From the IMG/VR virus record IMGVR_UViG_3300012664_000155, positions 925-64,924 of that record: 64,000 bases of DNA, one strand, 5' to 3'. Position 1 is the first letter of the stretch. The number at the start of each line of letters is the position of its first letter. The stretch comes from a virus. Its lineage: Duplodnaviria > Caudoviricetes. The translations under genes were made by a program, and so were the position numbers. Below are positions 17,649-52,007 of the stretch, in pieces. The notes beneath the pieces are model-generated. The model saw only the letters and a program-made list of their open reading frames with translations, ran no database searches and was not told where the DNA came from.

Positions 17649-19683
<2,035 letters not shown>

Positions 19684-19950: not shown

Positions 19951-19956
19951 CTATCG

Positions 19957-20030
19957 TGGTCCATCCAGGACTCGAACCTGGGACTTTCGCATTATGAGTG
20001 CGCTACTCTAACCAACTGAGTTAAAGGACC
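19957..20030 (-). tRNA. tRNA with CAU anticodon, probably tRNA-Ile2 (lysidine type)
   Basis: Cloverleaf GGTCCTTTAACTCAGTTGGTTAGAGTAGCGCACTCATAATGCGAAAGTCCCAGGTTCGAGTCCTGGATGGACCA; C4-G69 and C5-G68 match known TilS determinants; no encoded CCA. Confidence 0.9.
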
Positions 20031-21700: not shown

Positions 21701-21826
21701 TAGTCGAGGACAGGATTTGAACCTGTACGATAACTTATGAGCGATCTTAACGGGTCTTTCGAGGTTACTCACGTTATCCTTACTATTAACCTTTATTCAT
21801 GCGTCTACCAATTCCGCCACCTGACT
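21701..21826 (-). ncRNA. tRNA-Leu-like RNA (126 nt) lacking a canonical anticodon arm
   Basis: Leu-type 5' end AGTCAGGTGGCGGAATTGGTAGACGC, T-arm ACAGG-TTCAAAT-CCTGT, acceptor CCTCGACT plus A73; middle replaced by ATGAATAAAGGTTAATAGTAA and a 50-nt hairpin. Confidence 0.8.
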
Positions 21827-21932
21827 ATTTGCCCATCCATTAGATGAGCTGCTCAACTTAAGGTATTGAGATTGCAAGAACAAGTCTCTGACCACGTCAT
21901 CTACAATTTTTGCAGCAACAGTAGTTATACCA

Positions 21933-21965
21933 CAAATATATATATTATATTATACATAACACAAA
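21933..21965 (-). promoter_or_regulatory. promoter for RNA island (-33 TTTG 21962-21965, -7 TATATTTG 21933-21940)
   Basis: Consensus boxes with 21-nt spacer. Confidence 0.7.
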
Positions 21966-21989
21966 ATACTTTTTACAAAAACTGCTTTG

Positions 21990-22063
21990 TGAACACTCGT
22001 GGAATCGAACCACGGACCCATGTCTTAAGCGGACATTGCTCTAACCAACTGAGCTAAGTGTTC
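21990..22063 (-). tRNA. tRNA-Lys(CUU) with non-canonical G33
   Basis: GAACACTTAGCTCAGTTGGTTAGAGCAATGTCCGCTTAAGACATGGGTCCGTGGTTCGATTCCACGAGTGTTCA; full cloverleaf, loop CGCUUAA, no encoded CCA. Confidence 0.8.
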
Positions 22064-22290
22064 TTCCTACATTCCTTACATCTCGGGTACACACCATGTC
22101 TGCCCAACGAGTACACATGATACTCAGTGAGCTTCTTAACGACCTTGCACTTGCTGCACTCCTTCACCTTTACCTTCACCTCTGGCAAGCGACACATCTT
22201 ACAGATCGTGTGCAACCCATCCCTAGACCTCGAGTTCTTGTGGAAGCAATCAGCCTTCTTGCCCTTATTACATTTAGTGCATACCTTCAT
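22054..22290 (-). CDS. double Cys4 zinc-binding protein (HNH/EndoVII-associated module, no nuclease domain)
   Basis: CTKC...CKMC and CSKC...CKEC; stop lies in the tRNA-Lys 5' strand. Confidence 0.6.
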   Translation of the reverse strand: MKVCTKCNKGKKADCFHKNSRSRDGLHTICKMCRLPEVKVKVKECSKCKVVKKLTEYHVYSLGRHGVYPRCKECRKNT

Positions 22291-22343
22291 GTTGACAAAT
22301 ATACGCATTAATTCCAATGAAACAAGGGGTGGAAGAAAAAAAT

Positions 22344-43834: not shown

Positions 43835-43868
43835 AACAACCCAGTTTAGTCTGGGTTGTTTCTTTTTA
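43835..43868. terminator. terminator between convergent early and late blocks
   Basis: 10-bp stem aacaacccag/ctgggttgtt followed by tcttttt. Confidence 0.8.
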
Positions 43869-46800
43869 TCTAAATATTATTTTTCTTCTTTCAGCCTCCT
43901 TAGGTTTTACCTCAGCATAACCACCTGACAATATTATCTTTAAGTTTTTATCACTTAAGTTTAACTTATCCTTTAGTTCGGTTCTAAGTTTACCAGAGTC
44001 GACACCTAATCTCTCAGCTGAGTTATAATCCTCCATCAACTGCTTATAGATTTCTTCTGTCTTTGAGTTAGCTTTTTCTAGAGCTTTTTCTTTTTCTTCA
44101 TCAGTTGCTTTCTCATTTCTAGAGATACTAGAGTACAACTCCTTAGCCTTATCAAGTCTGTCTCTATAGTCATAAACTCTATATCCAAAGCTCTCACCAA
44201 CATCAATCTTAATAGGTCTATATCCAGTTGAAGCGCCTATTACTTCTTTTAACTTATCTTCTGAATTTGATATTCTAAGAGCAGAAGTTACAGTTCCAGG
44301 TTGAGCAATTCCAAATGCAAATTCAGCAATATTTCCTGCTATTCCGTTCCAGTCATCTTCTGAGTTCCAGATAGGTCTGTCGTAGTTATCAGTACCAGAC
44401 ACTAAATTAAACATTGCCTTAGCGGTCATCTCTGGCTCAAGGAATGGTTTAAATATACTAAACATTGCCTCTTTAGCTCCATCTATAGGGTCATCTCCAC
44501 CAAAGAAAGCGTTGAATGCTTTACCTATGCCCCCATGTGGATCAGATGCAGACATATCAATATATGTTATTGTGCCATCACTATTCTTAATAGGGATTAT
44601 ATCTGACTGTGTAGACCATGGCGGTAAGAACTTTCTTAAATCTTTTTCTTTTTCTTTTTCATCATCATCATCTCCAAAGTATCCTGCTAATCCTGCTAGA
44701 CCCATTCCAAATGCACTTCCATAAAAAGAAAGTAACGCATTCTTAGCACTAAGATATGTCAATGTACCTATAACTCTCCTTGCTCCAATAGCTCTTATTG
44801 CTGGATTTTTGCTAGTTATCTCGCTCTTGGCAAGTTGCATTGTCTTGAATGCTGTTCTATATGATTCTGCCTGGAAAGATATAAAGTTACCAAGTAATGG
44901 AGATTTTCTAAGCGTCTTTACAATTTTAGGTATTCTACTAAATGTAGGCATAGTGTCCTTAACTATGTTAGCAACAGTTGCGTCTATTTTAGATCTCTCA
45001 GAATCTGTTAAATCTTTAACATCTTTATTAAACTCAGCTTTAGCGTATCTTCTTAGTTCACTTTCATAAGCAAGTACCTTGAAGAAGTCATCCTCTGCCT
45101 GATAAGCTGTTTCAGCAGCAGAACCAATTGATTTTGCAATTCTTTTTCCTCTTCCAAGTACCGAAGCAATAGGTTTCTTTTTTATACTAGGTCTCTTAGA
45201 TAGTCTCTCAGCTAGCGACTTATCAAAGTCAGCATCCTTGAACATATCTCTGATCTCTCCGATACCAGCAGATTGCTTCATTATACCTAGCTCTATGTAT
45301 TTATCTATTCTCTTTCTTATTTCTTCATTTGATGAGTTACTTATGTCTGAATATATTGCCTTAAATGCATCAACAGCACCAGATGTATGACCATTTACAG
45401 CTACGAAACCTAAGTTACCAAATAAATTCTTTGCATGAGTCATAACAGATCCAATGGTCTTACCCCATTTTATCATAGATATAGCCTTCATGTAGATCTT
45501 CATCAACTTTCCTAGTTCTCCTGGTAAGTTGTTGAATTCTTTTGCAATCTCAGGAGTTGTGTATAACCCATTTAATGGATTCATTGCATCACTTCCTGGA
45601 GCTGCTATCATTACATTATATCCCTCTGGACGTGTCTTCTCTGTAAATAGATATACTCCCATTCCTGTATCCTTGATCTTATTTAAGAAGTCATTCTTAG
45701 CAGAAAGAGCAGAAAGTTTCATGACTGTCTCAGCATAGTTCTGTACAGGATCAGTGAACTCACCCATTAACTGTCTAATCTCTATTGGAATATTAGTTCT
45801 TTCCTTGAACACACCAAGTTCTTTTGACTTGCTTCCAAGTTTTCCTCCACCTAGAAATTCATCTGCGCTTATCTTATTTGTGTATTTATCAATTTTATTA
45901 TTAACCAATCTATTCAACTCAAAGTCTACCTCAGTACCTTTTATTTTAGCTATTCTTTTAGCTTCATTAAGATTTTGTTTCATTAATAAATTCTTAGCTC
46001 TCTGTACAATCTCTTCCTTAGCCTTGTAATCTTTATTTTTAAACACCTCATAAGATCTGGTCAGATAAGAGCCTAAATTTTCTTGAATCTCTTTTGCTAC
46101 TTTTAATGGAGCTATACCTGCATTTATTATATTTCTAGATAATGCATCGATCTGATTACGCATCTCATTAGCAACGATCTTTGCATCGTCTGAAATATCT
46201 ACTTTTTTATTACCTCTTAGGTATGCGTCATAGTTCTCTAAAAACTTCTCTCTTAAATCTTTAGGTATAGCATTGTAAACCTTATTGAAGTCCTTAGATA
46301 TTCTAACAACTTTATTTAAAGCTTCAGCTATTGCTCCTTCCATATTTTCCTGAGCCTCAAACATCGAGTTAGTTCTGCTTCCCTTTGTAGTCAACTGATC
46401 TTTAGACCATTTCTTTATAGATTGAGCTATCTTAGGAAGACCAGTTTTTGGATCGTTCAAGAATACGTTGTCTTTAACAGCGTTATATCTTCGGATTGCC
46501 TCTTGTGATTGTGAACCCTTTATACCTTGATTTTCTAAATATTTTTTAATTGCAGCATCAGTAAATCCTTGATCTTTTAATTTTTTAATCGTATCATCAA
46601 TATTTAACTGATCTCTAGATAATGAATCAGTATTTAGCTTTAATCCTCTAACAGATACACCACTTGAAGGATATACTTTTTTAAATCTATCCTCAGTAAC
46701 TATTTTTTTTGTTTTAAAATCTTCAAAAACATCAGACCATGTTACTCTATCAGTTAATATATGAAGCTTAACCTTTCCATCAGCTTCAATAGCTTTTGGA

Positions 46801-49800
46801 TATGATTCATGTTTATCAGAGTCAACATCTTTAACCATTCCATCAACTTCTAGTATAGCATAAACCTGACCTCCTTTTGTTCTGTCAACACCAGTCTTAA
46901 GGAGTGGTTCTGTAAGCATTTCAGAAATACCTTGCTTTAAATTTGTTGCAGATATTTTAAAACCTCCACCGTCTTTTTTAGATCTTGGAGAAGCCTTAAA
47001 TGATTCATTCTTAATTCCTTCGCTGAAAAATTTAACAAATTGATCTTCAGCTTTAGGATTTTCTTTAATTATATTTGCAACATTTGATATTAAACTTTCT
47101 GCAAAAAACTTTCTATCATCAAAAGAACTTTTCTCAGGGTCTAATTTTTTAGAAATTTCAGATTTAATATCATCTATAGATAATCCAGGTTTTAAATTTA
47201 ATTTTAAACCTACTTCCTTCATTCTATATTGTTTATTTCCTTTTGAATCTAATATAGGTTCTTTTGTATTTTTATCAACAATTGCTGTTTTTCTTATTAC
47301 AAATTTATTTGCTGCATCAAGTAAAGATTGTTTTACTTGTGTTTGATTTATTGAGAAATTTTTATCAAAAGCTTTTGATATAATAATCTCCATTACACCA
47401 TTAGAAGCTGTAGTGCTTGATAAAAGTTTATTACTAGGAGCTGTTGTAAGAGCCATTAATATCTTACCTCCATTTTCTTTATAAACTTTATTCAAATCTT
47501 TAGCCATTTTTTCAGCAGCAGATTTAGTGCTTGCCCAGAAATAACCATCTTCATGAAACTTTATTGGATAATAAACTCCATCTTTCCCTTCTACAAGAAG
47601 TTCACCATTTTTGTAAATCATTCCAGAGAACGCTGCGTCTGGTTGGTGTAAAAATATAGTTTTTCCATTAAAATCTGATATAGATTTATCTTTTGTTATA
47701 TATCCTTCTTCTTCTAAAGCTTTAAATTTTTCTGTGTTTTTATCATAAACAAATTCTACTTTAGATGCAGGATCTATAAAATCAGCTTGAAATCTTGAGT
47801 TTGCATCTGCTATCTCTTCAGAAGAAGGAATAATTTCAACATCAGACTCAGTTATTTCCTTACCGCTTGCAATCTTACCTGCGATAGTTTTAAGAGCGTC
47901 ATATGTATCGTTTGTTCTTTCAAGACCAAACATATCTGCTAACTTATTAATCCATCTAGTAATAATATCCTTAATAGGCGTTGTAAATGAGTTGTAGTTC
48001 TCAGCTAACTTACCAATAAACTCAGCTAGTTTCTCTTCGTTCTGTAAATTACTTTCATACTGAGAAGAAAAATCATCTAAGTACTTTTTTAAAGATGGAT
48101 TTTTATCAATCTTTTGAGCGATAGCATCAACTAATTTTTTAGTAATATCCTGAGCGTTAGCGTTTGTCTTAACCTTATTTAGTAACACAGCATGGAACAC
48201 CTCGTGAGCTACAGTTCTAGCGTTAGCATTTACTGAATTTATATGTATTATATTTGTTTTTGAATCAAACTTACCGTTAGAAAACTTACCTTTATCACCA
48301 ACAGCTTGGTTATATTCTTCCTGTGTAGCATGAACTTTTATTTTAACTTCTGGCAACACATTAGACAATGCCTTTGCAGCTCTAGAAACAGATCTTGCTA
48401 TACGTTTGTTTTTAATTCTAGATACCTTTTTATTTATCTCCGCATCTGTTCCTGAAATAAACTCACTAATTGCCTCAACCTCGCTTTCAATTGCTGTTTT
48501 CTTTGGGTTAGGGATGTATATTTTTTTAGATTTATCACCATTTTCATACACAAATCTTCTTCCATCTTCACCTGTTATAATCCTTTGATTTTTCTTAACA
48601 GTTCCGTCCTGGTTGTTTTTAACCTCTACAGATTTACCTGTTGGTGAAACCTTAGTAGAGTACTTATCTTGACTAGTAGTATTATCGGTAGAATCCTCGT
48701 ATTCACTTTTTATAAATCCTTCATTATCAATGTTAGGATCTTTTAGTGTTTCTATCTCATCTTGTATTTTGAATGCCTCTTCTTCAGATAAACCACCCTC
48801 CTCAAGTTTAGATTCAAGTTCTGATATTCTTCCTAGATTTTCAGTTTCTTTTGATGGATTAATAGTTTTAGTGACAGGCTGTTGAGCTTCTTTAGTAGTA
48901 ACTTCTGAAGTTTTTTTAATGTTTAAATTAGGATCTAAATCAACTTTTTCAAAACTATCAATAGTACTGTCTTTAATATCTTTATAAACATTTGAGGTGT
49001 TTTCTATTGCTTTTTTAATAAGAATATCTGAAATATTATCAGGCAAGTTTCCGTCATCTTCTATAGTAGCTATTGTATAACCGTCTCGACCTAATGTTGT
49101 TCCATTTACTCCCTTTATTTTTAAACCTGCTACTATATAATTTTTACCTTTACGTTCTATTTTAGTAACGAAAGATTTTCTTTTAGCCATTTTATCATAT
49201 ACTTCATTTGATCCTCTAACATCAAATGCGTTATTAGAAAACATGATAGCTCCTTCGTTCAATCCACTTAATGATATATTTTTTTCTATTTCCTCTTGGC
49301 TGCTGATATTGCTATCGCCAGTATCTGCGCTCGGCTTCTCGGTTTCCCCGACTGCCCCTTCTCCTTGCCCGATTTCTTGTTGTCCTTCATCAGTTCCTTC
49401 ACGTTGTACGATATAGCCTTCTGTACTGACTTCTTGTTTGTTGCTTTCTTTAGTGGCATTTTCTCCGATTGTTTTTAGTTCGTTATTTATTTCTTCTATT
49501 CTAGCTTTTTGATTATAAATAAGACTCTCGTCTTTTCCATCAATTTCTTTCTCTATTTTCTTTCTTTCAGCTAATAATTTAAAAGATTGTGTCTTGTCTT
49601 CAATATTATCTGGTATCTCTTTTAATAAACCTATAGATTCATTTAGTTCTTGAACTTGATCTTGTGCTTGTTTAGTGGTTATTTGACCATTAAGAACTTT
49701 ATATTTTAAATCTTTTTCAAATACTTCTTTTACAGCTGGATCTTTTGCTAGTCCTTCTATTTGTTTAACTTGATTAGACGTTCTAGTTTCTCTAGTAGTT

Positions 49801-52007
49801 TGTAAAACTTGTGGTATAGAAGACATTAATGCACCTCCTAATAGTCCTAATTTATAGCTTTCAGAAACTCTATCAAGCATCTCACCATAAGTTCCATTTT
49901 TAAAAATATCTTTTTCTTCAATTGCATTATAGGCTTCTTTTAAACCAATATCAGCCATTTCTTGTAATGCTTCTGTTGTTCCCTCTACATTTCCTTTAGC
50001 TGTTAAATTAAGGACACCTTTAGTGATTAATGTTTTTACATTTGAGTTTATAGCATTGTCAATAGCTTCTTTCGATGCATCTTTAGGAAGATCTTTAAAT
50101 GCTTTAGATATTATCCAAGAAGTAACTTTCCCTCCAACTGGAGTTTTAGTAAACCATTTAGACATACCAAAAGATTCTAATTTAGATGATACATATCCGT
50201 AAGCACCGCTTAATAATACTTTATCAGCTTCACTAATTTTTGCAGTATCAGGATCTGAATTTATTTGATCCTTAAAATTCATATAAGAACTAGCAGCCAT
50301 TCCAATTTGACTAGGACTTAATAATGCTTTCTTAGTTATGTTTTTAATTATTTCTGTACCAGTTTTTTTTATTAATGCTCCTTCAACAGCAACAGCTTGT
50401 CCTGCCCCAGGAATTGGAATTGAAGCAGCAGCTCCTAATGATTCAGCTATACCAGCTATAGTTTTTTCTAAGTCCCCTCTTTTATTGCTAGATATATACT
50501 CTTCAGTAATTATACCAGGGAGTATATCATTAAAATCTTCCTTGCTTAATACATCTGTATTATATATTCTATTCCCTTTTGAGTCATAAACTGGAGTTTC
50601 TGTGTAATCATGTAATTCTTTTAAAGCTCTAGTAGTTTGAATAAATCCATTTGCAAAGCCTGCTAATATATTACTTGCAGCATCACCTCTATCTTCATTA
50701 GCTAATGCTTTTTCAGCAATAACTTTTTCCATTAAATCTCTATCTTCTCCTATAGTTTTTTTCTCTTCATTTATTTCTGATAACTTATCTTTTATATTTT
50801 GTTTTTTAAATACATAAGCCTCATCATTTACTATACTGTTGTATTGATCTAATGTTATTTCTCCATTTGAATATTTTTCTTTTATTTCATTATCGAATTC
50901 TTGATCTTTTTTAATTTCATCTTTCAATATTACAGCATTAGCTATTAGTCTAGATGTGTTTTCATTAAAAGATTTATCTGCATCTTTTATTTTTTTATCA
51001 CCATACATTGCAGCAGATGCATATTTACCTTTTGATAAAGCATATCCCTTTCTGTAAAATTCTTGCTTCTTTATTTCTTTATTTACATCTGATAATTCTT
51101 GCTCAAGAGATTGAGTATTGACCCCCTGCCCAGAAGATAATTGATTAGTTATATTTTTTCTTTTTTCTACTAAATCATTATACTTCTTAAAAGATAAATT
51201 AGATTCTATAAAACTTCCTAATATATTCTTTTCAGTTTCACTTCCATCTAAATCTACAGTAATTGTCTGATCAGTTTTCTTATTAGTAATCTTTAACATA
51301 TTACCAACACCAGTTTCTTCAAAATCAAATATATCATCTGGAGTACCTCTAAATTTATTTCTTAAATCTTCAACAGTTTGTTCTTCTGTCTTGTTTACAT
51401 AATTAGAAGCTTCTTTAGATATTTTTTCAACTCTATTTCTTTCAAGTACAATAGGATCGTTTTTCTCTAAAACTTCGAAATCTTTTTTAAATAGCTGTTG
51501 TTGTTTTTTATCTGTTTTTGTTTGAGCTCCTGTACTTTTACTAACTACTGGAGCAGCCTCTGGCTTCCATGTAATGCTTTTTTCATAATCAGCATCAAAC
51601 AATGGACGAGCTACTTTATCTAAATATTCAGATTTTTTCTTTATATCACCTTGTTGAATCTGCTTGAAATTTCCATTTCTATTTACATCTGTATACCAAT
51701 CATTACCTACCTTTTTAAATACAGCTGTAGAATTAGGTGCTGAATATAATTTACTTTCCGAACCAGAAGATACCGAAGGCTTTTTTATTTCCGTTGTTGA
51801 TGTAGCCAATGATACATCTCCCTGATTTTGTTCTGAAGGAGACACCATAGTGCTTTTTTTTTTAACGCTTCTTCCTGTTGGAAATACAGGTCCTTCACCT
51901 TCTACTGAAGGAGATGCACCCTTTTCTTTAGAAATTACAGGTCCTTCATTTTGTTTTAAATTAGATTTTTTTCTTCCTGTTGGAAATATAGGTCCGTCGT
52001 TATTCAT
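43866..52007 (-). CDS. giant polyvalent virion/ejection protein (zincin HExxH module, LPD38-like C-terminus)
   Basis: 2713 aa; IHINSVNANARTVAHEVFH metallopeptidase motif; last gene of the internal-virion cluster. Confidence 0.7.
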   Translation of the reverse strand: MNNDGPIFPTGRKKSNLKQNEGPVISKEKGASPSVEGEGPVFPTGRSVKKKSTMVSPSEQNQGDVSLATSTTEIKKPSVSSGSESKLYSAPNSTAVFKKVGNDWYTDVNRNGNFKQIQQGDIKKKSEYLDKVARPLFDADYEKSITWKPEAAPVVSKSTGAQTKTDKKQQQLFKKDFEVLEKNDPIVLERNRVEKISKEASNYVNKTEEQTVEDLRNKFRGTPDDIFDFEETGVGNMLKITNKKTDQTITVDLDGSETEKNILGSFIESNLSFKKYNDLVEKRKNITNQLSSGQGVNTQSLEQELSDVNKEIKKQEFYRKGYALSKGKYASAAMYGDKKIKDADKSFNENTSRLIANAVILKDEIKKDQEFDNEIKEKYSNGEITLDQYNSIVNDEAYVFKKQNIKDKLSEINEEKKTIGEDRDLMEKVIAEKALANEDRGDAASNILAGFANGFIQTTRALKELHDYTETPVYDSKGNRIYNTDVLSKEDFNDILPGIITEEYISSNKRGDLEKTIAGIAESLGAAASIPIPGAGQAVAVEGALIKKTGTEIIKNITKKALLSPSQIGMAASSYMNFKDQINSDPDTAKISEADKVLLSGAYGYVSSKLESFGMSKWFTKTPVGGKVTSWIISKAFKDLPKDASKEAIDNAINSNVKTLITKGVLNLTAKGNVEGTTEALQEMADIGLKEAYNAIEEKDIFKNGTYGEMLDRVSESYKLGLLGGALMSSIPQVLQTTRETRTSNQVKQIEGLAKDPAVKEVFEKDLKYKVLNGQITTKQAQDQVQELNESIGLLKEIPDNIEDKTQSFKLLAERKKIEKEIDGKDESLIYNQKARIEEINNELKTIGENATKESNKQEVSTEGYIVQREGTDEGQQEIGQGEGAVGETEKPSADTGDSNISSQEEIEKNISLSGLNEGAIMFSNNAFDVRGSNEVYDKMAKRKSFVTKIERKGKNYIVAGLKIKGVNGTTLGRDGYTIATIEDDGNLPDNISDILIKKAIENTSNVYKDIKDSTIDSFEKVDLDPNLNIKKTSEVTTKEAQQPVTKTINPSKETENLGRISELESKLEEGGLSEEEAFKIQDEIETLKDPNIDNEGFIKSEYEDSTDNTTSQDKYSTKVSPTGKSVEVKNNQDGTVKKNQRIITGEDGRRFVYENGDKSKKIYIPNPKKTAIESEVEAISEFISGTDAEINKKVSRIKNKRIARSVSRAAKALSNVLPEVKIKVHATQEEYNQAVGDKGKFSNGKFDSKTNIIHINSVNANARTVAHEVFHAVLLNKVKTNANAQDITKKLVDAIAQKIDKNPSLKKYLDDFSSQYESNLQNEEKLAEFIGKLAENYNSFTTPIKDIITRWINKLADMFGLERTNDTYDALKTIAGKIASGKEITESDVEIIPSSEEIADANSRFQADFIDPASKVEFVYDKNTEKFKALEEEGYITKDKSISDFNGKTIFLHQPDAAFSGMIYKNGELLVEGKDGVYYPIKFHEDGYFWASTKSAAEKMAKDLNKVYKENGGKILMALTTAPSNKLLSSTTASNGVMEIIISKAFDKNFSINQTQVKQSLLDAANKFVIRKTAIVDKNTKEPILDSKGNKQYRMKEVGLKLNLKPGLSIDDIKSEISKKLDPEKSSFDDRKFFAESLISNVANIIKENPKAEDQFVKFFSEGIKNESFKASPRSKKDGGGFKISATNLKQGISEMLTEPLLKTGVDRTKGGQVYAILEVDGMVKDVDSDKHESYPKAIEADGKVKLHILTDRVTWSDVFEDFKTKKIVTEDRFKKVYPSSGVSVRGLKLNTDSLSRDQLNIDDTIKKLKDQGFTDAAIKKYLENQGIKGSQSQEAIRRYNAVKDNVFLNDPKTGLPKIAQSIKKWSKDQLTTKGSRTNSMFEAQENMEGAIAEALNKVVRISKDFNKVYNAIPKDLREKFLENYDAYLRGNKKVDISDDAKIVANEMRNQIDALSRNIINAGIAPLKVAKEIQENLGSYLTRSYEVFKNKDYKAKEEIVQRAKNLLMKQNLNEAKRIAKIKGTEVDFELNRLVNNKIDKYTNKISADEFLGGGKLGSKSKELGVFKERTNIPIEIRQLMGEFTDPVQNYAETVMKLSALSAKNDFLNKIKDTGMGVYLFTEKTRPEGYNVMIAAPGSDAMNPLNGLYTTPEIAKEFNNLPGELGKLMKIYMKAISMIKWGKTIGSVMTHAKNLFGNLGFVAVNGHTSGAVDAFKAIYSDISNSSNEEIRKRIDKYIELGIMKQSAGIGEIRDMFKDADFDKSLAERLSKRPSIKKKPIASVLGRGKRIAKSIGSAAETAYQAEDDFFKVLAYESELRRYAKAEFNKDVKDLTDSERSKIDATVANIVKDTMPTFSRIPKIVKTLRKSPLLGNFISFQAESYRTAFKTMQLAKSEITSKNPAIRAIGARRVIGTLTYLSAKNALLSFYGSAFGMGLAGLAGYFGDDDDEKEKEKDLRKFLPPWSTQSDIIPIKNSDGTITYIDMSASDPHGGIGKAFNAFFGGDDPIDGAKEAMFSIFKPFLEPEMTAKAMFNLVSGTDNYDRPIWNSEDDWNGIAGNIAEFAFGIAQPGTVTSALRISNSEDKLKEVIGASTGYRPIKIDVGESFGYRVYDYRDRLDKAKELYSSISRNEKATDEEKEKALEKANSKTEEIYKQLMEDYNSAERLGVDSGKLRTELKDKLNLSDKNLKIILSGGYAEVKPKEAERRKIIFR

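Follow-up and report, generated by a model that had tools for sequence, protein, structure and literature searches.

Phage tRNA clusters have been known since the 1970s to contain 'stable RNAs of unknown function' (T4 species 1 and 2, T5 RNA1). The locus described here raises the question of what kind of RNA begins and ends as a tRNA-Leu does and carries something else where the anticodon belongs. It lies in the window, by which we mean the whole 64,000-nucleotide stretch that was analysed; the source record is a complete 64.9-kb virus genome with direct terminal repeats, whose encoded products include a GroEL-like chaperonin and a 2,713-aa protein. The original prediction had proposed a tRNA-Leu-like RNA in which a four-codon reading frame with three stacked stops replaces the anticodon arm, possibly a miniature transfer-messenger RNA (tmRNA). 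Our analysis rejects the tmRNA-like messenger reading and points to a functional, anticodon-less and possibly chargeable RNA. What is new here is its cargo, a portable module; the frame type itself has published kin in T5 RNA1.

Overall architecture of the element

The D-arm, T-arm, singly bulged acceptor helix and A73 that had been predicted are all found in place on the minus strand (Table 1), as are the string AUG AAU AAA GGU UAA UAG UAA (21800-21780) and the long hairpin at the variable-arm position (21778-21729). About 75 nt stand in place of the anticodon and variable arms, and the remaining frame keeps U8, A14, A15:U48, G18G19 and the T-loop. CCA is not encoded. The trailer of the window element is CAAAAC, and this type of trailer (C-W-A-A) resembles that of the window's tRNA-Lys.

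The Rfam tRNA model (RF00005) aligns end to end with the element over model positions 1-71, the anticodon arm giving way to a 65-nt insertion, and scores 22.7 bits (E = 0.018 in a 351-nt search, 8e-4 in a whole-genome search), below the gathering score of 29 bits; ARAGORN makes no call at 21826-21701, and neither tmRNA nor any other family gives a match. The low tRNA score of the window copy is due to the extra C in its acceptor stem. Relatives whose stem is perfect (L119, L135 and L143) reach 36-38 bits and so pass the gathering score. Among the 53 copies, 50 have an intact stem, and the extra C (21706) is common only to the window copy and L169. Since this second lineage also carries it, the C is not a sequencing slip. 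It might impair processing or charging of the window copy; the L169 lineage keeps the same C.

Measured against a canonical tRNA, the element has the 7-bp acceptor stem with discriminator (one bulged C in the window copy) and consensus D- and T-arms. The anticodon stem with its 7-nt loop and anticodon is missing, the insertion lying at model positions of about 29-41, and no complementary anticodon-stem halves flank the insert. Within the variable loop, UUAAGAU could form an anticodon-like loop of 7 nt on a 2-bp stem; this candidate was dropped, since relatives do not conserve it. Folded as a single sequence, the element is as stable as its shuffles (z = 0.16), which is uninformative. Because the folding energy is not above that of shuffles, structural support comes from comparison between copies.

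Table 1. Positions of the element, its parts and the features around it; positions are those of the window, and n is the number of aligned copies
Feature	Position	Strand	Remarks
tRNA-Leu-like element	21826-21701	minus	between tRNA-Lys and tRNA-Met, inside the phage tRNA cluster
Acceptor stem 5' strand AGUCAGG, with A1	21820-21826	minus	pairs with 21702-21709; 5 of 7 pairs compensatory among 53 copies
U8 G9	21819-21818	minus	
Leu-type D-arm GCGGAAUUGGUAGACGC	21817-21801	minus	3-bp stem GCG/CGC, loop GAAUUGGUAGA
Linker AUGAAUA, D-stem to pseudoknot (supposed start codon)	21794-21800	minus	ATG 51/53, ATA 2/53
Pseudoknot 5' strand AAGGUU (supposed codons AAA GGU U)	21788-21793	minus	pairs with 21761-21766
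Junction AAUAGUAAG, containing the stacked stops	21779-21787	minus	AAYAGUAARG kept in 53/53 embedded copies
Module body: P1 GAUAAC/GUUAUC, P2 GAGU/GCUC, junction GAAAGACCC, variable loop	21729-21778	minus	
Pseudoknot 3' strand AACCUC, within the module body	21761-21766	minus	
Two-nt link to the T-stem; U48 partners A15	21727-21728	minus	AU 46, GU 6, AC 1 (n = 53)
T-arm ACAGG/UUCAAAU/CCUGU	21710-21726	minus	3 of 5 pairs compensatory, e.g. ACAAG/CUUGU in 8 copies
Acceptor stem 3' strand CCU-C-GACU	21702-21709	minus	extra (bulged) C at 21706
Discriminator A73	21701	minus	A 45, G 7, U 1 (n = 53)
tRNA-Lys, flanking the element	21989-22063		ARAGORN
tRNA-Met, flanking the element	19956-20030		ARAGORN
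Candidate sigma-70-type promoter upstream of the element	21949-21978	minus	TTGTAA-18-TATAAT, 10/12 matches, weak

Conservation among phages

Leu-type frames with unrelated middles form a large class: a pattern joining the D-arm to the T-loop across a 55-85-nt gap has matches in at least 109 viral contigs. The acceptor stem AGUCAGG/CCUGACU is common to 51 of 126 class members, many with unrelated cargos; the tRNA-Leu genes with which these phages decode (L075, L143) have a different one. A 'GTAAG' motif occurs across this wider family in 25 of 126 members (10.7 expected); it was dropped as a family-wide motif since its carriers come mostly from the window-type subfamily.

With narrower patterns, 53 distinct sequences of the window's own type were gathered from metagenome and viral contigs spanning 4 kb to 271 kb (alignment A2). 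Their median pairwise identity is 87%, whereas their 150-nt flanks are 59% identical, the value of shuffled flanks, and 2% of pairs share flanks. Standard pairs fill 96.4% of the base-pair cells, against 30-39% when the partners are slid. Thirteen pairs have changed on both sides, as in the acceptor stem AGUGAGG/CCUCACU; this number was reached in none of 500 shuffles, a statistic inflated by kinship among the copies. U8 G9 and the D-arm (21801-21819) are nearly invariant, and 52 of the 53 copies have U48. These comparisons support the view that the element is a conserved, selected, anticodon-less tRNA-Leu-like RNA. The claim that it is not a decayed pseudogene stands, given copies of such identity between flanks at shuffle level and the 13 compensatory pairs. 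Of what the original prediction proposed to look for in homologues, the middles are indeed conserved and covarying, but the AUG...stop stack is not kept throughout (ATG is ATA in 2/53 copies and TAG is CAG in 14/53).

The same data bear on whether this could be a tRNA-Leu gene disrupted by an insertion and now dead, or an intron-bearing one that is spliced to a decoding tRNA. Group I introns are classically found in tRNA-Leu genes, and the module described below does occur once inside such an intron. However, conservation drops sharply from the element to its flanks, the element shows compensatory changes, anticodon-stem halves do not border the insert, and a 65-75-nt insert is too short for a group I intron or its core. 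The Intron_gpI model, which does detect the Klebsiella phage intron discussed below, has no match in the window. Both histories are therefore highly improbable.

Nine neighbouring proteins of the window had zero matches by tblastn at 24 loci of the element's close relatives, and no recurrent protein partner emerged near the copies after clustering of 2,867 flanking ORFs. Promoter-like sites around the element are not more numerous than in shuffles, and the candidate at 21978-21949 is no better than chance. A search of cultured phages for the embedded form, with a 501-nt stretch of the window as the query, gave tRNA-Lys matches only.

Contigs from RNA libraries (four runs) cover the element alone, at about 21707-21830, and then run into unlike flanks. 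Because the match is confined to the element and the flanks differ, these contigs are copies from other phages; they hold relatives of the element and cannot show transcription, RNA ends or CCA addition. Two of them end near 21745, which we attribute to branching of the assembly graph at the variable loop and not to an RNA end. Lake, aquatic and subsurface metagenomes appear among the matching sequencing runs at small shares only, and we draw no conclusion on habitat from them.

A pseudoknot in place of the message

Comparison of the copies indicates that GGUU, part of the supposed message (AAA GGU U), and the AACC of the hairpin loop, directly after P2, form an H-type pseudoknot stacked on P2 and P1. 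Its sole variable pair in the embedded copies is A-U in 42, G.U in 9 and G-C in 2, and never A-C; taken alone, the embedded set thus rests the pseudoknot on one covarying pair. In stand-alone copies of the module, the same pair is G-C in 22 and A-U in 5, with no mismatches. P1 has two compensatory pairs among the embedded copies and 13 different, always complementary sequences among the stand-alone ones, while P2 has C-G as its first pair in some contexts and G-C in others (CAGU/GCUG versus GAGU/GCUC). By our estimate the fold is geometrically tight in the embedded form, where the 7-nt linker must span an 18-bp stack to its far end.

On this evidence the AUG...stop string is structural and not a message. 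In 14 of 53 copies the second stop (TAG) reads CAG; the third 'stop' falls in the conserved junction YAGUAARG. The linker AUGAAUA has no counterpart in the stand-alone modules, which do retain a close variant of the junction AAYAGUAARG; no ATG is present in the module forms outside tRNA frames. RNA pairing or linker drift therefore accounts for the changes from AAA to AAG and from AAU to AAC, which look synonymous. Neither a Shine-Dalgarno sequence ahead of the AUG nor a resume-codon context was found.

The idea of a mini tmRNA, which would be charged, enter stalled ribosomes and have an M-N-K-G tag translated from it, has in its favour only its local look, an AUG and three in-frame stops beside a tRNA-like domain. 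Against it, the codons are a pseudoknot strand and a conserved junction, and the ATG and second stop are not kept. The tmRNA models (ARAGORN; Rfam RF00023 and its clan) have no match to the element, whereas the same tool finds ordinary tmRNA genes of 87-100 bits at sister phage loci (L165, L053). Pair 3:70 is U-A and not G-U, so the alanine identity of tmRNA is absent, and the full Leu-type D-arm is likewise unlike tmRNA. With translation signals lacking and related phages encoding normal tmRNAs, this part of the original prediction fails, and we regard it as scarcely credible.

The cargo as an independent module

The main new result is that the cargo, about 65 nt (21793-21729), is a self-contained RNA domain, as judged by its recurrence in unrelated sequence contexts. 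We define the module by a GGUUA/UAACC pseudoknot, P1, P2 (SAGU/GCUS) and the junctions YAGUA and GAAAGAC, every part of which is present at 21793-21729. When its conserved strands were searched for without a tRNA anchor, the module appeared in several settings. Other tRNA frames that hold it (L172, L206) differ in their acceptor, D and T sequences, and the frames of L157, L193 and L204 have an extra 20-30-nt hairpin inside the D-loop. Eight unique copies stand alone, with the same strand order and a plain closing stem (9 bp in L165). Another 17 unique stand-alone copies are circularly permuted, so that they end in a third helix and P1 is closed by the GGGUUA-strand loop.

By BLAST against cultured phages, the module is found in 45 records, in almost all of which it is unannotated. 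These phages include those of E. coli K-12, Proteus, Klebsiella, Erwinia, Rhizobium and Pseudomonas. Phage mogra, a T4-like phage of E. coli K-12 (MN850579), has it at about 100446-100546, where it takes up all 101 nt that separate tRNA-Met from tRNA-Arg. Proteus phage Stubb has it in the interval from tRNA-Glu to tRNA-Ile, and Pectobacterium phage PM2 has it upstream of tRNA-Leu, with trna.2 on the other side. The copy in the Klebsiella jumbo phage RaK2 comes after a tRNA-like 3' end. In the Klebsiella phages VLCpiM5b and KP12 the DNA polymerase gene is split by a group I intron (69.8 bits against RF00028) whose P6 loop contains the module as an insertion of 83 nt; homologous introns of related phages have an HNH or LAGLIDADG homing endonuclease gene at that position. 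Among 185,579 bacterial species genomes there were three pattern matches, a genuine one in a Sphingobacteriales MAG contig and two that are due to chance. The module is absent from the T4 and T5 genomes.

Flanking tRNA genes would give the stand-alone module defined ends by 'punctuation'. A tRNA-type T-loop adjoins 9 of 30 stand-alone modules, close to background, so tRNA-based maturation cannot be the module's rule. Nor do the stand-alone modules share an upstream ORF; the ORFs differ from one another.

The module matches no Rfam family in any of its contexts. HDV-like, hairpin, pistol and hammerhead readings were each tried and set aside, as no model matches and the helix order differs. The invariant junctions, the pseudoknot and the permuted forms nonetheless fit a binding site for a protein or ligand, or a small ribozyme, and the presence of the module in phages that infect many bacterial groups suggests that its partner is universal. 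Circular permutation with shared junctions is typical of hammerhead and twister ribozymes, and here three circular or topological permutations share conserved junction nucleotides. Small ribozymes also adjoin phage tRNAs elsewhere, as do the theta ribozymes (PMC10879173) and a Pistol ribozyme in L157, and the module itself occupies the loop of a group I intron. It could thus be a new small self-cleaving ribozyme or ligand-binding aptamer for which the tRNA frame, the intron loop and the plain stem are merely hosts. However, no known ribozyme or riboswitch model matches, the helix order in our comparison is unlike the HDV-like fold, and neither a cleavage site nor a ligand can be read from the sequence. 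Self-cleavage would moreover halve the tRNA-like frame, which seems hard to square with the conservation of that frame, and we consider this account quite unlikely. A broader version, to which we give tentative and limited credence, is that the cargo belongs to an undescribed catalytic or ligand-sensing RNA class (a small ribozyme that cleaves itself, or an aptamer that senses a metabolite or an immune signal) that plugs into tRNA frames, the space between tRNAs and the homing-endonuclease slot, with the tRNA-Leu frame coupling its activity to processing or charging.

The tRNA-Leu frame and its possible charging

The D-arm of the element is of the type found in a bona fide phage tRNA-Leu in L075, and we take it to be identical to that of E. 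coli tRNA-Leu(CAG). Leucylation of E. coli tRNA-Leu survives the removal of the anticodon and variable arms, provided that A73 and the D/T contacts remain (PMC9976931). The determinants that E. coli LeuRS uses on such an arm-less tRNA-Leu, namely A73, A15:U48, G18G19 and the T-loop, are retained in the window element (per PMC9976931). Because they are kept, charging by LeuRS is plausible for most copies. The discriminator is nevertheless G in 7 of 53 copies and U in one, which makes a strict leucine role less convincing; G73 blocks E. coli LeuRS (PMC9976931). Given these copies and the D-loop insertions in three, leucylation is not obviously the conserved point.

For the same reasons we think it very unlikely that the element is a dedicated leucine donor, a non-decoding RNA charged by LeuRS that would pass its leucine to a non-ribosomal acceptor through an enzyme of the L/F-transferase or Fem type. 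The preserved elbow, with A73 in 45 of 53 copies and A15:U48, G18G19 and the T-loop kept, agrees with this role, as does the activity of truncated tRNA-Leu as a LeuRS substrate (PMC9976931). The G73 and U73 copies and the three with a 20-30-nt D-loop hairpin do not, and the module occurs elsewhere without any acceptor end. Clustering of the flanking ORFs also revealed no aminoacyl-transferase gene recurring near the copies.

Relation to known RNAs

The closest published relative is T5 RNA1 (NC_005859, 30501-30644), annotated as a 'tRNA-like stable RNA with unknown functions'. It too lies in a phage tRNA cluster and has an acceptor stem, a T-arm and a nearly identical Leu-type D-arm, with about 80 nt replacing its anticodon and variable arms. 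It also aligns end to end with the Rfam tRNA model at a sub-threshold score (24.0 bits; 22.7 for the window element). The two differ in that the cargo of T5 RNA1 is unrelated in sequence and lacks the module motifs, its first acceptor pair is mismatched and its discriminator is not A. T5 RNA1 is a stable RNA according to its GenBank annotation, whereas the window element is known from sequence alone. The T4 species 1 and 2 RNAs (rnaC, rnaD) are likewise small stable RNAs beside a tRNA-Arg in a phage tRNA cluster, and rnaC ends in a T-arm and an acceptor-like stem, but they show no sequence or model similarity to the element and no Rfam tRNA match at E <= 1.

With class II tRNA-Leu the element shares the D-arm, T-arm, U8, A14, A15:U48, G18G19, A73 and a helix at the variable-arm position. 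It differs in having no anticodon stem-loop, so that it cannot decode, and its 'variable arm' is a 50-nt pseudoknotted domain. It resembles tmRNA (SsrA) in combining a tRNA-like acceptor and T-arm with a middle that contains a pseudoknot; in every defining feature that could be tested (models, G3:U70, a D-stem-less domain and a tag frame), it differs. YrlA, a bacterial Y RNA-like RNA, has its tRNA-like module internally and its ends in a Ro-binding stem, whereas the ends of the element form the acceptor stem; there is no Rfam match to YrlA at E <= 10.

As Ponchon and Dardel are said to have found in 2007, engineered tRNA scaffolds in which the anticodon arm is swapped for a cargo RNA are processed and stable. 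The window element has the same architecture, and full-text searches of the literature found no description of a natural tRNA scaffold, of this tRNA-frame class or of the module. The theta ribozymes are comparable as small structured RNAs coupled to phage tRNA genes and their processing, but they are HDV-like and lie downstream of complete tRNAs (PMC10879173), whereas the module has a different helix order and its catalysis is only hypothetical. A catalogue of 10,006 candidate viral RNAs mentions only candidates that overlap tRNAs (PMC10690425).

A proposed carrier frame and its cargo

The explanation that we favour, and consider moderately probable, is a functional, non-decoding phage RNA with two separable parts, a tRNA-Leu-type frame and a pseudoknot cargo that does the work. 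The frame (acceptor stem, D-arm, T-arm and elbow) would allow RNase P, 3' trimming and CCA addition to excise the RNA from its transcript, would presumably confer tRNA-like stability and may also permit charging by LeuRS. The cargo is probably the working part and would either bind a conserved protein, RNA or small-molecule partner or act catalytically. That the module is the working part and its hosts are carriers is suggested by its occurrence in the same form on a tRNA frame, between tRNAs, on a plain stem and in a ribozyme loop.

The place of the gene among phage tRNA genes, together with the selection on its acceptor, D and T features, also calls to mind an uncleavable decoy of class II shape (Leu, Tyr or Ser), in which a rigid pseudoknot replaces the scissile loops and the RNA sponges up tRNA-targeting defence nucleases or toxins. 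Septu and retron-Eco7 (PtuAB) indeed cleave the variable arm of tRNA-Tyr, a class II tRNA, and phage tRNAs counter them as supplement or decoy (PMC13096335; also PMC11555353). Attractive as a decoy role is for the frame, we hold it to be unlikely for the present element. The cargo is strongly conserved in sequence, including its single-stranded junctions, which mere non-cleavable filler would not explain, and the module also occurs without a frame, between tRNAs and inside an intron. There is also no known defence system that the RNA of the element blocks. The decoy and the favoured frame-and-cargo explanation overlap, in that the cargo would then be the protective part.

Taken as a carrier frame with a cargo, the element indicates that at least one of the RNAs of this kind in phage tRNA clusters is modular, combining a tRNA-Leu frame with a portable pseudoknot domain. 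Such genes confuse tRNA finders, as relatives of the element exceed the Rfam tRNA threshold yet cannot decode. If the frame is a natural scaffold for processing and stability, the engineered tRNA scaffold would have its counterpart in nature, and if the module is catalytic or binds a ligand, it would represent a new RNA class. The domain goes unannotated in at least 45 records of cultured phages, which makes the question of its function directly testable in laboratory systems.

Insertion sites of the pseudoknot module

The DNA polymerase gene of Klebsiella phage VLCpiM5b is interrupted by a group I intron, and its annotation lists two ‘DNA polymerase’ coding sequences. The intron matches RF00028 with 69.8 bits and has no open reading frame. 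Its P6 loop contains the pseudoknot module, the cargo carried by the tRNA-Leu-type element of the window. Related introns in Vequintavirinae carry HNH or LAGLIDADG genes at this site, whereas in VLCpiM5b it is occupied by the module. Stand-alone modules at two other loci (L237 and L246) have the direct repeat AAACCAAAACAAA on both sides.

The tRNA frame itself accepts cargo at a second site, the D-loop, where three copies of the element contain an additional hairpin of 20-30 nt between GAA and GGUAGA. In some phages, tRNA-like genes sharing the AGUCAGG acceptor strand are arranged in tandem with differing cargos, and ARAGORN mistakes some of these array genes for tRNA-Leu whose anticodon is oddly placed. 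At locus L119 it also calls a tRNA whose anticodon, gaaa, has four bases; this gene scores 48 bits with the Rfam tRNA model and may be a tRNA with an 8-nt anticodon loop.

Genomic surroundings

The window phage has a 65-kb genome with terminal repeats, and two tRNAs are the only Rfam matches at gathering thresholds across the whole window. An 87-residue reading frame has its 3′ end within the first bases of tRNA-Lys. In PHROG comparisons (E about 1e-13) it resembles the zinc ribbons of Lar-like, endonuclease VII and HNH families. The frame may be what is left of a homing-endonuclease-type gene within this tRNA cluster. The phage also encodes a GroEL-like chaperonin (PHROG 5725, E = 2e-131) and a 2,713-residue reading frame.

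Other phage loci that harbour tRNA-like or module RNAs contain further structured RNAs: a GOLLD RNA at 306 bits, full-size tmRNAs scoring 87 and 100 bits, and a Pistol ribozyme at 47 bits. These loci, L053, L165 and L157, are dense non-coding RNA islands.

Coordinates of the features described
Feature	Location	Strand
VLCpiM5b intron	L255:1059-1363 (ON602729 28514-28818)	
Repeat-flanked stand-alone modules	L237:3928-4087; L246:7201-7360	
D-loop hairpin copies	L157:5218-5447; L204:12464-12693; L193:160-389	
Tandem AGUCAGG-frame arrays	L119:2400-2930; L053:122-578; L068:1953-2356	
Four-base-anticodon tRNA	L119:2428-2500	
87-residue frame	window 22054-22317	-
GroEL-like chaperonin	window 17901-19469	-
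2,713-residue frame	window 43866-52007	-
GOLLD, tmRNA and Pistol loci	L053:6857-7268; L053:8135-8530; L165:1277-1644; L157:12253-12312
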